From positions 2,670,001 to 2,702,000 of the forward strand of contig NC_006138.1 of the NCBI RefSeq assembly GCF_000025945.1: 32,000 nt of DNA. Direction: 5' to 3'. This DNA is from Desulfotalea psychrophila LSv54 (GTDB lineage Bacteria; Desulfobacterota; Desulfobulbia; Desulfobulbales; Desulfocapsaceae). Under the pieces are notes generated by a model. That model was not told where the DNA came from. It made no database searches and saw only the letters and a program-made list of their open reading frames with translations. Position numbers and translations under genes: made by a program. Shown piece after piece: positions 836-6,460 of the stretch. The stretch's first letter is position 1; the number at the start of each line of letters is the position of its first letter.

Positions 836-1283
836 TTATTTAAACAAAAACCTTTCTCTAAACCACCCAAGTTGCAACGTTGGTAAAAAGAATATCTTTA
901 AACCATATTTGTATTGAAATGGTCGGTATTTATTTAGAGTATCGGTAAAATTTAACAATTTTTTCTCATCTTCGTCATAGCCTTGTTCTATTTTTATTTC
1001 TATGACCAAAAGATTATTCTCAAGTTCAAGCCTTCCACGTTTATGTATAACGATATCTGGTCTCTTATGATTTTTGTGAGAATCATGTTTCGGGTCAAGT
1101 TCTTCACCCATTTCGTTGTATTCACAATCAACATTAAATCCAGAGAAATACTCTTCTAGATTAACAGCATAACCTATGCGCAGTTGCCCATTCCAGTTTA
1201 TTGCATATCAGTTCCAGATCGTTGATCTGAACCTTTTTTATTGCCCCTAAGATAATTTTTTCTAAAATTTCGTGTTCCATCAT
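836..1283 (-). pseudogene. PD-(D/E)xK nuclease-fold-like protein, frameshifted
   Basis: The C-terminal ORF 836..1111 contains RPDIVIHKRG...NLLVIEIK, a D...E.K restriction-endonuclease-like core. That frame stays open to 1207 (..NGQLRIGYAVNLEEYFSGFNVDCEYNE..) without a start codon. A 40-codon ORF beginning ATGATG at 1283 runs into it in a different frame. Confidence 0.5.
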
Positions 1284-1341
1284 TTTTTTATCCAATGCAC
1301 TTCATCTTTTATTTAGATAACGCCAAGTTAAATAGCGCACG

Positions 1342-1707
1342 TTAACGCATCTCAGCTTTAGTCCTTATTGGCTTCTTGAACTTCGAAGCTAGTTTAAATT
1401 TTAAGTTGCTTACGGTCTCTTCTCTATCAAAAGAGGCTTGAACTGCAATAATTGGGATACAATTTCTTTTAGCCTCACGCAACTCCCATTGAACCCATTC
1501 AGACTCATTAATAGAGTTGGATGACATTAGCAGTAACAATTGAGCTTGCGATAGCATCTGTTCTACGTGGCGTTGCTTGTCTATTGAGTCGTTATGTAAC
1601 AAGTCGATGTAATAAGACCCGTATTCTGAAAGCACCTCGGACACACTCTCTAATAGTTTACGATCAATATAGTGATCTCTAGTGGTATAACTAACGAATA
1701 TTCCCAT
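1342..1707 (-). CDS. minimal TIR-like domain protein (~121 aa)
   Basis: N-terminal IFVSYTTRD strand motif. SEWVQWELREA matches the S-x-W-x-x-x-E-L TIR motif that carries the catalytic Glu. ATG at 1707 is preferred over the TTG at 1719 used by the ORF track. The start lies 1 nt after the stop of the upstream membrane ORF. Confidence 0.7.
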   Translation of the reverse strand: MGIFVSYTTRDHYIDRKLLESVSEVLSEYGSYYIDLLHNDSIDKQRHVEQMLSQAQLLLLMSSNSINESEWVQWELREAKRNCIPIIAVQASFDREETVSNLKFKLASKFKKPIRTKAEMR

Positions 1708-1708
1708 G

Positions 1709-2156
1709 TCACTTACCAATCCAATTCATAAAAAATGCAAACCAGCCTATAAGCCCTAGTGTCGATAAAGCATAGTAAAGAGACATTGAATGATTAAATG
1801 CCGCACCTAGCCAGCTTACTCCTAATTGTTCAGGTTGATAGTTGTCAATTAAATTTCTTTGAGCTATTGCTTGCAGTTTCCTGTTCATGGCAATTCTCGT
1901 TTTTCTTTGAAAGTAATATGCTGAAAAAATCTGCGACCCAAAACCCGAAGCAAATTAATAGCGGTATGAGAAAATATGTATGATCAAGTTGGTTGTCAGT
2001 AAGTTTAACTAGTATAGCTAAAGCGGCACCAATAAGCCCTACACATATTTTTTTGAACTCAAAACAGCTCTTACTAATCTGTAGTGTAGCCTCATGAAGT
2101 TGATCCACGCACGCCCAGTCTAATTCGTCCTCACATGTTTTCTTATATTCTGTCAT
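1709..2156 (-). CDS. small three-TM membrane protein, split into two overlapping ORFs (1845..2156 and 1709..1888) by a frameshift
   Basis: The 103-aa ORF has two hydrophobic helices (GLIGAALAILV, FLIPLLICFGFWVADFF) followed by a hydrophilic junk-like tail. A 59-aa ORF in another frame (MNRKLQAIAQRNL...LYYALSTLGLIGWFAFFMNWIGK) adds a third helix and ends at TGA 1709-1711. Removing one base from the A6/T6 run at 1924-1929 fuses them into one ~148-aa protein. Confidence 0.5.
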
Positions 2157-2242
2157 ATGTTTTTCGTACTCTAAATTTTTTGGGGTGAAGCTAACGCTTC
2201 AAACACCTGCGCAGCTTTGCTGCGTCCGAGTGCTTTGATTTG

Positions 2243-3160
2243 TTATGCTTTTTTATTATTATTTATAGATGCAAGGACATTAGGTATATCATCAATAGAA
2301 CATAATGTAATTTGGTTTGAGGCAACGCCGCACTTTTCCAGTTGTCTTATGTGGTTTTTCCCTTCGTCTTCTGAGTATTGACTAACAACCCATTTACTAC
2401 TTTGGGTCACGTTGGATATCTTTTTAAAATATGGAATATCAATGTCATTTAAAGAATGGCCTATGACCACTACAACCTCGACATTTTCAAGATTTTTGAA
2501 GTAACTAAGACTGTAATCTATAATGTCGTCAATCGGCTTCTGAAAAGCATAAAACGGGTACTTAGCTGAACCTTCAGCGTCAGTGAACATGGTACGATTG
2601 CTTTCCCAATTTTCATCTAATTCAGGTACTTCTTCCATTGACTCGCCATGTCCAAAAATTAAGCGATCATATTTGACGACACTACCATGAATATGAAAAA
2701 CTAGATCATCAGATATTCCATAAACCATTTGAAGAATGGATGTGTAGTTAAATGAGATAAATCGACACGCCGATCTAAAGTCAAACTTCGCTTCGACACC
2801 ATCAATAGAAATGGATTCAATCCACTCCTGAAATTGCTACTGAATGTCATCAACTAAATTGTCAGCCTGCTCTTTGATATCGTCTTCAAGGCCATATGCC
2901 ATGCTTGGCTTGAATGAATCATCTGAGACGTCAATGAAATTATGGTTATTATAAAATATTTCCCAATCGAACTTGCCAAGAACTACTTCAAAGTTGTTCC
3001 ACGGATTTTCTGTAATTATGTCAAAACATAGATACTGCTCCAACTCATCAAGATGGGTCTCTGAAAACGCATAGAAGTCAGTGTACTTAGTGGGTAACCC
3101 ATGCCATAGATCAAATCCGTTACCAATTACATACAAAATTTCCATGTCGATAATTCCCAT
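2243..3160 (-). pseudogene. abiH: AbiH-family abortive-infection protein interrupted by one in-frame TAG
   Basis: The N-terminal ORF has ILYVIGNGFDLWHGLPTKYTDFY, the AbiH signature. The C-terminal ORF has FHIHGS and VVIGHSLNDIDIPYF. ORFs 2837..3160 and 2243..2728 are in the same frame. The 36 intervening codons (QFQEWIESISIDGVEAKFDFRSACRFISFNYTSILQ) are open. The only block is the TAG at 2837-2839. Confidence 0.8.
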
Positions 3161-3282
3161 CCGTAACGATTTGTATATGGGTTCGCATAACGCCTCGTCA
3201 ACTGGCGCGAGATTGTTGTTTTTGCGTGTTTTTGTTTTGCAAAAATAATGACAGCCGTTACACGTCTGCTTGATTTACCTTA

Positions 3283-4050
3283 TTAAGCCGTTTCTAACTT
3301 ATATTGTCCTGTGGACATTTTTGCTCTAGTTAATCTAGGACGACATCCTGCTCGTTCGGGCAAATCATTAACCAGGATTTCCAGTTCTCGATAATTATTA
3401 GAAGACATTTTTGTACCAGCTATTACCCGAGTAATCATAGTCTGGTCAAACTTATGGATACCCGGCCCTTTTTTCATAGCAAGTACTCTATACTCTGACT
3501 CATACTCCCAATCTAATGATTTAGTCAAAAATATTTTTTTTACTGCATTAAAATTTCTAGTACCTGCAATAATGATTGGCATATTCGCAGAGTACTCAAC
3601 ATCCCAACCAAATAGCTTTTTCTCTACGTTGCCCATATGCATATTTTCATTTACGTTGTTGGTAGTAAACTCAACTACAAATCCTGCATGATTATCAGCA
3701 TAATGCGACCACATAAGGATATTGTCAGGCTTTTTCGTCAAGCAACATATTCCAACATTACCAATAATCCCATCATGAAACACACCAGATTTCAAAGACT
3801 TTCTTATACCATCAAGCATTTTATTTTTCTTTTGTATACAACTGGCTGGTGACAACCCTAGCTGCCGACCTACTTCCTTAAATATGTCAGGACGAGATTC
3901 TATGTACAGCATCGATTCGTCAATGTCATACGCCGTTTTGCAATCAAACGGATCATTAAATTCTGAGTAATGGCTAAATTTCATAGTGCCTTGGGACAAA
4001 ATGCATTTTGAGCCATCAGTAAATGGTAAGTATTTATAAAATTTCAGCAC
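3283..4050 (-). CDS. DUF2971 family protein
   Basis: N-terminus FYKYLPF....ILSQGTMKFSHYSEFNDPFD matches the DUF2971 hallmark (YKY ... L.FS....FNDPFE). GTG start at 4050. Confidence 0.75.
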   Translation of the reverse strand: MLKFYKYLPFTDGSKCILSQGTMKFSHYSEFNDPFDCKTAYDIDESMLYIESRPDIFKEVGRQLGLSPASCIQKKNKMLDGIRKSLKSGVFHDGIIGNVGICCLTKKPDNILMWSHYADNHAGFVVEFTTNNVNENMHMGNVEKKLFGWDVEYSANMPIIIAGTRNFNAVKKIFLTKSLDWEYESEYRVLAMKKGPGIHKFDQTMITRVIAGTKMSSNNYRELEILVNDLPERAGCRPRLTRAKMSTGQYKLETA

Positions 4051-4186
4051 AAAGATCCCTCACTTTTACGACTGCGGCTTGGTTATGATTGATCAATGAT
4101 GATCTTTAATTTAGAATTTTGGCAAAAGCCCAATCAGCGAAATATTGCCATGCTCTTTATACATTTATGGGGGGCTAATGAAATAT

Positions 4187-4540
4187 TCAATCAAGTGCTT
4201 CTTTTTTCCAATCAATCATTGATATTTCAGGGATAAATATAGATTTTTTATCCAAATTTCCATCTCCATTTTCATCAATTAACATATACTCTTGCAAACC
4301 ATCTCCATTTTCATCAACGTTTATTCTTCTGATGATTCGGTCTCTATATACTATCTGAGCAATTGACCCATCATTAGCTTTAATTTTTAAATATTGAATA
4401 TAGCTTTTTTTAATTACGTCTGAATTGTAAAAACCGTCCCATTGATCAATTACCTTGCCACCTAACCATCTATTTGGATTAAGTTGGCTATTTTTACCAA
4501 TTTCATGAGTTTCCAATTTAATAGTTGGAGGCCAAATCAT
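4187..4540 (-). CDS. hypothetical small protein with two DENGDG (DxDxDG-like, Ca-binding-type) motifs
   Basis: ORF of 117 aa containing VDENGDGLQE and IDENGDGNLD spaced 10 residues apart. Same strand and composition as the neighbouring island genes. Confidence 0.5.
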   Translation of the reverse strand: MIWPPTIKLETHEIGKNSQLNPNRWLGGKVIDQWDGFYNSDVIKKSYIQYLKIKANDGSIAQIVYRDRIIRRINVDENGDGLQEYMLIDENGDGNLDKKSIFIPEISMIDWKKEALD

Positions 4541-4569
4541 ACTTACAGATATCGGTTTAAATATAAAAT

Positions 4570-5181
4570 TTAAATTTTCATTGACAGGTGGATAGTTTTT
4601 GGCATTGATCGAAATACCAATATTAATTTTTTTTGGAATAAAATGTCTTTTTTTTCATTTACATGGAGACCAATAATTGTTGCTGTATACGCTGGAACTC
4701 CATCTGACAAAACCACAAGTATTTCTTCAACTGCAAAAAAAGTTGGAAATGAAAGCACATCAATTGTTGGTAACGGAGTATAATTTTTTGAAACTGACAA
4801 TAAACCAAAATTGTGCTCGAAAACTAACTTTCCCGGTTCAATTGGAACCTTTTGTTCAGCTTCTGATCTGATATCCAATGATTTATCATAAGTTAATTCA
4901 ACTTTGACAATTTCTAGGGGCTCATCATTTTTATTCTTTATTGCTAGATTAATCGGCATCCTAATCCTACTTGCGAACAAATCGCTTTCGTTCAAGGTGA
5001 CTTCGATGTTATTTGTATCGACTAAAAAAATATCACCCTTTTGATCTTTTTTATACCATGCGATTCCTATTTTTAAGTTTTTATACCAACCATTTATTTC
5101 CTGACACACACTAAACGCCGAAGATATTAAACCAGCAATTAAAGCTAATCCGCCTATTATAAGCCATACTTTTTTTAACAT
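4570..5181 (-). CDS. hypothetical N-terminally membrane-anchored protein
   Basis: ORF of 203 aa. The N-terminus KKVWLIIGGLALIAGLISSAF is a single hydrophobic anchor. The rest is beta-rich-looking with no recognised motif. Confidence 0.55.
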   Translation of the reverse strand: MLKKVWLIIGGLALIAGLISSAFSVCQEINGWYKNLKIGIAWYKKDQKGDIFLVDTNNIEVTLNESDLFASRIRMPINLAIKNKNDEPLEIVKVELTYDKSLDIRSEAEQKVPIEPGKLVFEHNFGLLSVSKNYTPLPTIDVLSFPTFFAVEEILVVLSDGVPAYTATIIGLHVNEKKDILFQKKLILVFRSMPKTIHLSMKI

Positions 5182-5455: not shown

Positions 5456-5704
5456 CAGGGCGAGCCCTTGCCCAGCAGGGATGGATTGGCCTGCCTTGCC
5501 CTCCCCCTCTCAGTTGCCCGAACGGAGTGAAGCTGGCGCGTGGGCAGGTCAGGACGGCCTGCCAGCTGCGAGGACAGGAGTCCGTTCGCAACCTTAGTGG
5601 AAGCTGAAACGAGAGTGAGGATTAGCAACTGAGCCGGGGCGGCATGGGGTTCGAAGGGGGGAATGCTTCCCCCTTTGGCCAGTGCGGGTGGCAAGCCGCG
5701 ATCC
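5456..5704 (+). repeat. GC-rich structured repeat, copy 1 (candidate ncRNA)
   Basis: The core 5509-5704 contains CTCAGTTGC (5509-5517) pairing with GCAACTGAG (5625-5633), and CGAACGGA (5519-5526) pairing with TCCGTTCG (5581-5588). It also has the hairpin GGGGGAA-TGC-TTCCCCC (5657-5673) and a terminal stem GCGG/CCGC (5684-5699). Confidence 0.85.
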
Positions 5705-6052
5705 AAAGCAACTCAAAAAAGCAGCCATTATCAGGGTAAAACCTACCTGATTCTTTTAACTAGTCTGGACGGGAAGTACGGGAATAACCATTAGCTATGG
5801 ACAACAGAGGCGAGCCCCTGCCAACAGAGGGGGCGCCCTGCCCTCCCCCTCTCAGTTGCCCGAACGGAGTGAAGCTGGCGCGTGGGCAGGTCAGGACGAA
5901 CTGCCAGCTGCGAGGACAGGAGTCCGTTCGCAGCGTTAGCGGAAGCTGAAATGAGAGTGAGGATTAGCAACTGAGCCGGGGCGGCATGGGGTTCAAAGGG
6001 GGGAATGCTGCTGTTTCCCCCTTTGGCCAGTGCGAGTGGCAACCCGCGATCG
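5705..6052 (+). repeat. GC-rich structured repeat, copy 2 with leader
   Basis: Same core (CTCAGTTGC at 5851-5859, end at 6052). It has a 6-nt insertion confined to the loop of the G/C hairpin. The leader 5705-5800 is homologous to the leader of copy 4. Confidence 0.85.
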
Positions 6053-6460
6053 AGGACAAGCCAATTTTTAGATTGCCCTATCAACGATTAGTCTCAGCGT
6101 GGAAACCCCACAAAGTAACACCTTATCATGGTAAAACTTATCTGATTCTTTTGGCCGTCCCTCAGGAAAGGGACACAGACAAAGGCAATTGTGCTGTAAT
6201 ATTCCGGAACAATGGGAAAAGGAGACAGAGCGAGGTGCTGGACACCAGTTTTCATCGTCCCCCTCTCAGTTGCCCGAACGGAGTGAAGCTGGCGCGTGGG
6301 CAGGTCAGGACGAACTGCCAGCTGCGAGGAGAGGAGTCCGTTCGCAACCTTAGTGGAAGCTGAAACGAGAGTGAGGATTAGCAACTGAGCCGGGGCGGCA
6401 TGGGGTTCAAAGGGGGGAATGCTTCCCCCTTTGGCCAGTGCGGGTGGCAACCCGTGATCC
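6053..6460 (+). repeat. GC-rich structured repeat, copy 3 with leader
   Basis: Core 6265-6460 is near-identical to copy 1. The leader 6053-6150 is homologous to 8330-8405. The segment between leader and core differs from copies 2 and 4. Confidence 0.85.

Follow-up and report, generated by a model that had tools for sequence, protein, structure and literature searches.

What is the pair of small, adjoining genes for a TIR-domain protein and a membrane protein in the chromosome of Desulfotalea psychrophila LSv54, and does it belong with the TIR-based systems that defend bacteria against phages? The pair lies on the minus strand of the window, by which we mean the whole 32,000-nucleotide stretch of DNA that was analysed (NC_006138.1, positions 2,670,001 to 2,702,000). 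An earlier note, made from the letters alone, had picked it out as a candidate two-gene defence module. Our analysis suggested that the locus is probably a decayed copy of a mobile two-gene anti-phage module of the Thoeris type, carried on an integron-style cassette. Judged by its sequence, the pair is a real and correctly read feature; it is not new, its family having been listed before as putative type V Thoeris.

The downstream gene encodes the TIR protein. Its open reading frame (ORF) ends with the stop codon at 1342-1344; read from the first start codon (TTG) it covers 1342 to 1719 and encodes 125 aa, a form 100% identical to DP2336 of the source strain, and read from the ATG it encodes 121 aa. 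The protein scored above the Pfam cut-offs for TIR_2 (29.2 bits, cut-off 28) and ThsB_TIR (24.8 bits, cut-off 21.2), and was matched by eight PADLOC ThsB models, down to E = 1.5e-5. Its AlphaFold2 model, built on 38 homologues, had a mean predicted local distance difference test score (pLDDT) of 90.2 and showed a five-strand alpha/beta fold. The best matches of the model in the PDB, as found by Foldseek, were the catalytic TIRs AbTir, SPARTA TIR-APAZ, SARM1, and RPP1, with template modelling scores of 0.6-0.7; DNPH1-type nucleoside hydrolases, which have the same fold, came next. The TIR-like nature proposed earlier for the 121-aa protein was thus confirmed by the Pfam cut-offs, the PADLOC ThsB models, and the predicted fold.

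The residues invariant among the 38 homologues include F4, S6-Y-T-T-R-D11, D35-L-L-H-N39, K44, Q45, S69, W71, V72, and E75. The S-x-W-x-x-x-E-L segment pointed out in the earlier note is present as S69-E-W71-V-Q-W-E75-L76, followed by REA (SEWVQWELREA), and its Glu is among these invariant residues. Profile alignments with TIRs of solved structure placed W71 and E75 at the W and E of the W-C-x-x-E-L motif in TLR2 and SNC1. We take the Glu of this motif to be the catalytic residue of enzymatic TIRs, including those of plants, and E75 is the predicted catalytic-position Glu of the window TIR.

The upstream gene encodes the membrane partner and is broken in the window. Two ORF pieces, 1845 to 2156 (103 aa, annotated as "unknown protein" in strain LSv54) and 1709 to 1888 (59 aa), both matched the family profile, with E = 5e-49 and 6e-31, respectively. 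In a codon comparison of 22 loci, the intact homologues read GAT TTT TCT or GAT TTT TCA at the point where the window has one T more. Removal of this T gave a protein of 148 aa, and the alignment of homologues likewise needed one residue fewer. The frameshifted small multi-membrane-spanning partner described earlier was therefore recovered, with three transmembrane (TM) segments in its repaired form. Since every homologue is encoded by one unbroken ORF, a programmed frameshift was rejected. Close homologues of the repaired protein number 84; they are 144-152 aa long, with identities of 53-86%. The membrane protein is better conserved than the TIR protein.

The AlphaFold2 model of the repaired membrane protein (pLDDT 89) was all helical, with helices at residues 8-52, 60-100, and 122-142; hydropathy placed the three TM segments at about 36-52, 59-79, and 128-146. 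Lys and Arg occur before TM1 and after TM2 and are absent from the 53-59 loop, a distribution suggesting that the N-terminus is inside and the C-terminus outside. With this predicted topology, the conserved residues, most of them polar, are found on the cytoplasmic face: D10, E11, Q19-L-H21, and K35-K36 before TM1, F72-W, D76, Y80, Q83, and R87 after TM2, and further N121, S123, and Y127. The core of this pattern, Q-L-H, K-K, F...D...Y..Q...R, and N.S...Y, persisted in an alignment of the 118-member superfamily. No curated family in Pfam or NCBIfam matched the protein. The earlier statement that it has none of the SIR2, Macro, or SLOG domains held, and these three identities were rejected for want of any match. 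SLATT was rejected as well, since neither the window protein, 8 close homologues, nor 118 distant relatives matched SLATT or DUF4231.

The two genes are arranged for co-translation. The TGA of the membrane ORF (1709-1711), a single spacer base (1708), and the ATG of the TIR gene (1705-1707) follow one another as the earlier note had read them, and a stop/start overlap or a spacer of at most 5 nt was found in 13 homologous loci (TAATG, TAGTATG, TGACATG, and TAACATG). Conservation of the pair in other genomes had been set beforehand as a test. In every locus for which downstream sequence was available (19/19), the membrane gene was followed by the TIR gene on the same strand; the hosts were Pseudoalteromonas, Idiomarina, Halomonas, Alloalcanivorax, Vibrio, Celerinatantimonas, Providencia, Xenorhabdus, Rahnella, Citrobacter, a Pseudomonas metagenome-assembled genome (MAG), and a Desulfobacteraceae MAG. 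The genes were adjacent also in loci L021, L022, L025, and L026, and divergent TIRs (about 45-50% identical) of Photobacterium and uncultured genomes had a partner of the same family. This pairing is far beyond chance. An exhaustive profile search gathered 233 representative clusters of the membrane family; in its long members the membrane protein is fused with a TIR domain, and both orders occur. No conserved third gene was found across the homologous loci, the third neighbour being variable. A tblastn search of phage and plasmid collections with the enterobacterial homologues (the Citrobacter pair P0141/P0057) and a blastn search of complete E. coli genomes with the cassette gave no match.

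Vibrio sp. ES.051 carries two copies of the cassette (L017 and L019) about 26 kb apart on one contig, in a chromosomal array; their TIR proteins are identical. The membrane-gene match of the second copy is shorter, starting from residue 25, and this copy is possibly 5'-truncated.

The way in which the pair moves was missed by the earlier note: it is an integron-type gene cassette. Marine gammaproteobacteria carry the pair as a single integron cassette with attC sites on both sides. Imperfect hairpins of the type TAAC...GCGTTA flank the pair at both ends in three homologous loci (L001, L003, and L010), and in a fourth (L009) one such hairpin closes the cassette. These hairpins, called with a home-made hairpin scan and not with IntegronFinder, have the shape and core sequences of integron attC sites. 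In L003, a 328-aa integrase adjoins an array of small same-strand ORFs. Many TIR homologues (among P0002-P0058 and P0309-P0342; see also L001, 6338-6391) have conserved C-terminal tails, LTRRSSKDALTRAA in one group and KRLKRDCQRAAFPVPLSRGGFG in Vibrio, which are translated attC sites lying outside the domain. A search of plasmids with the V. cholerae TIR gave hits only to its tail, and these were attC sites of resistance integrons; the attC sites matched by the Vibrio tail lie beside AAC(6')-Ib cassettes.

Both boundaries of the cassette are recognisable in the window (Table 1). The DNA fold of the upstream hairpin had an energy of -14 kcal/mol with the AAC/GTT cores paired, and its core TCAAAGCACTCGG-CGCAGC-AAGCTG was common to an attC of the L003 array and to an attC-like site after the TIR gene of Alloalcanivorax, the latter not picked up by the hairpin scan. 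The downstream boundary aligned with the attC at the end of this cassette as found in Pseudoalteromonas, Idiomarina, the Pseudomonas MAG, and a metagenome array; its R' core GCGTTA is kept, and its 5' core has changed from CTAAC to CCAAT. With these putative boundaries, the window pair is one integron-type gene cassette at about 1311-2194 on the minus strand. No integrase was found in the 26 window ORFs scanned; of the 32 ORFs of at least 120 aa, the ten at 22.5-32 kb lay outside the scan; the window array would accordingly be an attC cluster without an integrase. Since the effector is frameshifted, the neighbouring AbiH gene has an in-frame stop, and the next small downstream gene is apparently frame-broken, the AT-rich island looks like an orphan, decaying cassette array.

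Table 1 Features of the TIR-membrane gene pair and its cassette in the window.
Feature	Position in window	Strand	Evidence
Downstream cassette boundary; degenerate attC, overlaps the TIR gene at its 3' end	1306..1372	-	Alignment
thsB-like gene; TIR-domain protein DP2336, 121 aa, apparently intact	1342..1707	-	Pfam, PADLOC, AlphaFold2, Foldseek
TGAcATG stop/start junction; translational coupling	1705..1711	-	Sequence read
thsF-like effector gene, frameshifted pseudogene; repaired product 148 aa with three transmembrane helices	1709..2156	-	ORFs, family profile, AlphaFold2
Frameshift site; T6 run, T5 in intact homologues (GAT TTT TCx)	1924..1929	-	Three-frame translation, alignment, codon comparison
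attC-like imperfect hairpin TAACAAATCAAAGCAC...GTGTTTGAAGCGTTA between AbiH stop and effector start; upstream cassette boundary	2192..2245	-	Fold, core comparison

The family occurs in prophages too. In Rahnella, a P2-like prophage carries the pair between gpA and portal, an interval that we take to be the P2 variable region, described as a defence hotspot (Rousset et al. 2022); the Citrobacter and Photobacterium pairs are among prophage genes. The family thus spreads as a two-gene integron cassette, and also in prophages, over Gammaproteobacteria, a betaproteobacterial Candidatus Accumulibacter MAG, and Desulfobacterota. These defence-type contexts, namely the gpA-portal position, the integron arrays, and the AbiH/PDC-S31 and DarT and NADAR neighbours, support an anti-phage role. 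On the V. cholerae contig (L025, 1028-2342), genes for DarT and for a NADAR-type protein, together resembling a DarTG module, lie directly downstream of the pair; they are another NAD-linked defence cassette in the same array.

Thoeris types V-XI have been defined from TIR operons in defence islands (Yirmiya et al., bioRxiv, 3 Dec 2025, doi 10.64898/2025.12.03.692087). Type V consists of ThsB and a three-TM effector, ThsF, which is annotated DUF2270 and was modelled as a ring oligomer with basic pockets; the type V system of B. thuringiensis responds to 3' cyclic ADP-ribose (3'cADPR), and the validated type V systems are from Bacillus, with ThsB clusters unrelated to the clade of the window TIR (doi 10.64898/2025.12.03.692087). 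Like type V, the window locus has two genes, encoding a ThsB-type TIR and a three-TM protein of about 150 aa; unlike type V, its effector is not recognised by the Pfam DUF2270 model and its copy is frameshifted. The window TIR was 68% identical to IMG 2510560244 and 39% identical to ThsB of V. cholerae ZWU0020. Both of these TIRs are listed as "DUF2270 - Type V", cluster 2615943391, in Table S1 of that study (doi 10.64898/2025.12.03.692087). In V. cholerae contigs encoding the exact ZWU0020 TIR domain, the upstream gene matched the profile of the window membrane family with E = 4e-71, and the gene upstream of the TIR in Vibrio sp. ES.051 likewise belongs to this family. Since the Table S1 TIRs and the V. 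cholerae partner fall in the same two families as the window proteins, the clade has already been catalogued as putative type V Thoeris. The earlier proposal of a two-gene module of the Thoeris kind stood for the most part: the pair is conserved and occurs as fusions, whereas its family had already been listed and the window copy is very probably dead.

Three small membrane proteins were also found beside other ThsB clades, on a Vibrio phage-like element, a Ligilactobacillus plasmid, and a Desulforapulum plasmid. In hhalign, their joint profile aligned with that of the membrane superfamily along the N-terminal helix, TM1, TM2, and the F-W-x-x-D...R motif (probability 95.3%, E = 2e-8). The small effectors recovered beside other ThsB clades fail the Pfam DUF2270 model too. 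The hhalign match supports one broad, putative family of three-TM effectors that accompany ThsB, however it may relate to PF10028.

Vibrio phage 10N.286.55.A5_PE002 (PQ189363.1; L029 1347-2635), a 14-kb tectivirus-like element of Vibrio cyclitrophicus, encodes a ThsB-type TIR and then a 147-aa membrane protein beside an integrase. The membrane protein is a remote relative of the window effector family, with an hhalign probability of 91.7%. Where plasmids of B. cereus and Priestia encode homologues of the type V TIR from B. thuringiensis, no small membrane gene lay next to them.

By analogy with types II, V, and VII of Thoeris, we infer a signalling mechanism for an intact copy. The TIR would sense infection and use Glu75 to convert NAD+ into an ADP-ribose-derived signal. 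This signal would bind the basic, conserved cytoplasmic surface of an oligomeric membrane protein, which might be formed by two motifs, Q-L-H...K-K ahead of TM1 and F-W-x-x-D-x-x-x-Y-Y-x-Q-x-K-x-R following TM2. Binding would gate or oligomerise the membrane protein, so that the membrane is opened or disrupted and the infection aborted.

Several results weigh against such a module. The V. cholerae ZWU0020 system, the sole tested member of the clade, gave no defence in E. coli (doi 10.64898/2025.12.03.692087). Pfam DUF2270 (PF10028) matched neither the repaired window protein nor its close homologues at E up to 1-10, and hit only 4 of 118 distant relatives, below threshold, with a best E of 1.5e-4. 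The hhalign link to the three ThsB-adjacent proteins covers only the first two-thirds of the membrane protein, and a Foldseek search of the membrane model against PDB and BFVD returned nothing below E = 0.1. A promoter scan found no promoter above chance at the window copy. In addition, a direct physical complex, in place of a diffusible signal, would also be consistent with fusions in both orders.

Such a complex is the main rival to signalling. The TIR would itself be the killer that depletes NAD+, the membrane protein would be its anchor or sensor, and their stable complex would be switched on by a phage-induced perturbation of the membrane or envelope. Besides the natural single-chain fusions, the tight translational coupling in all loci, the bareness of the TIR, which lacks a sensor domain, and the NAD-consuming effector TIRs SARM1, SPARTA, and AbTir among the best structural matches speak for this idea. 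We nevertheless regard it as unlikely, though still worth weighing: in PADLOC and Pfam, the TIRs of the clade group with the ThsB models of Thoeris; the residues best conserved in the membrane protein are polar or basic ones on the cytoplasmic face, as for a ligand pocket; and in types II, V, and VII of Thoeris, small multi-TM proteins are known to be the effectors that kill the cell (doi 10.64898/2025.12.03.692087). The fusions, the failure of the DUF2270 model, and the negative E. coli test leave room for a related reading, to which we give a similarly small chance: the clade would be a separate Thoeris-like type and not true DUF2270/ThsF, i.e. an obligate complex of a minimal TIR and a three-TM membrane protein, possibly with a signal other than 3'cADPR or none. 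Such a module would, in addition, be specialised to spread as one integron cassette.

Two further explanations seem less probable. The extra T may be a sequencing or assembly error in the 2004 genome, the Desulfotalea module being intact and functional; a single extra base in a homopolymer is a typical error of this type, and the rest of both frames is undamaged, with 79-86% identity to the closest intact homologues. The adjacent AbiH gene has an independent in-frame stop, though, the next downstream cassette also looks frame-broken, and the downstream attC has lost its 5' core. Taken together these lesions look like genuine decay of the whole array, and make an error quite unlikely. The pair might, alternatively, be an addiction module akin to toxin-antitoxin systems, in which a membrane toxin and a TIR-fold antidote or regulator stabilise cassette arrays and prophages and do not act on phages. 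Addiction modules are common in integron arrays and prophages, where this pair also lives, the only tested relative gave no defence, and the gene inactivated here is that of the membrane protein, as expected of a toxic gene. This is the explanation we consider most improbable, given that an antidote role does not account for the strong conservation of the catalytic-position Glu and of the whole TIR core, that the neighbours (AbiH, PDC-S31, and DarT/NADAR) are defence genes, and that one pair occupies the gpA-portal position of a P2-like prophage. We retain the reading of a decayed Thoeris-type module as the best explanation. The effector frameshift and the AbiH stop suggest that the window copy is very probably dead, and the module is most likely non-functional in the window unless the extra T is a sequencing error.

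Comparison with other known systems gave partial likenesses. Type II Thoeris (ThsB and TM-Macro, with a histidine-ADP-ribose (His-ADPR) signal) also pairs a signal-producing TIR with an effector that spans the membrane and kills the cell, but the window effector has no Macro domain, is 148 aa long, and lacks a soluble ligand-binding domain. Type VII Thoeris (ThsB and SLATT, with cyclic ADP-ribose) and the SLATT effectors of CBASS resemble the window locus in pairing a small helical membrane effector with a synthase of a nucleotide signal, and occur in marine gammaproteobacteria as well; the window effector family differs in matching neither SLATT nor DUF4231 of Pfam. The TIR and transmembrane system of the phage AC1 P2 hotspot (Rousset et al. 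2022, PMC9122126) likewise has a TIR with membrane partners, and the Rahnella homologue of the window pair is in a P2-like prophage; three genes make up the AC1 system, in contrast to the two conserved genes here. The PADLOC candidate PDC-M50A gave the only library signal for the membrane protein, and a weak one: homologues matched it with E = 1e-6 and 3e-6, covering 112 of its 134 profile positions, and the N-terminal window fragment with E = 9e-4, but the repaired window protein did not match it at E up to 1. A literature search found no paper on PDC-M50 or "2TM-1TM-TIR".

The value of the assignment is modest: it places a "hypothetical" gene pair of Desulfotalea in a family recently catalogued as Thoeris. 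The clade is so far without experimental support, its sole tested member being negative and its effector being missed by the Pfam model that names the type. At 121 and 148 aa, the two proteins are among the smallest candidates for TIR signalling. The intact orthologues, and not the broken copy, would be convenient for studying phage sensing by a bare TIR and ligand gating of a three-helix protein.

The surroundings of the pair agree with the earlier description of an AT-rich island beside AbiH and DUF2971: the GC content is 32-38% at 1001-5000, compared with about 47-57% in most of the window, and both neighbours were matched by Pfam. The AbiH gene (2243-3160, minus strand; PF14253, E = 4e-18 and 2e-16 for its two pieces) is one continuous frame with a single in-frame stop at 2837-2839, between DDIQ and QFQEW. 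Its lesion is thus a nonsense mutation and not a frameshift, and AbiH is a second inactivated defence gene beside the frameshifted effector. The DUF2971 protein (3283-4050, minus strand; PF11185, E = 9e-10) is intact and strongly matched PADLOC PDC-S31 (E = 1e-44). Its gene looks like a separate cassette, because an attC-like hairpin GTGTAACGGCTGTCA...TGACGAGGCGTTATGCG (3161-3282) comes after it.

Downstream of the TIR gene, at 836-1295 on the minus strand, a 44-aa ORF (1161-1295) and a 91-aa ORF (836-1111) lie in different frames and together appear to be one broken gene. The 91-aa ORF contains a D...E-x-K pattern (PDIVIH...VIEIK) resembling that of PD-(D/E)xK nucleases, and had no library match. 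On the other side, in the most AT-rich stretch (32% GC), a gene for a 203-aa protein with an N-terminal hydrophobic helix (4570-5181) is followed after a 29-nt gap by a gene for a 117-aa protein (4187-4540), both on the minus strand. Neither had a family match in Pfam or PADLOC, and the two may be a further cassette of unassigned function. An Rfam scan of the entire window gave no match. Where the island ends on its high-coordinate side, a GC-rich repeat of about 203 nt occurs in three copies on the plus strand (5502-5704, 5844-6046, and 6258-6460), which are 83-97% identical and spaced 342 and 414 nt apart. Each copy holds a 68-nt imperfect hairpin with GAAC...GTTC ends, and the repeats could be host-type attC-like repeats or another repeat element.

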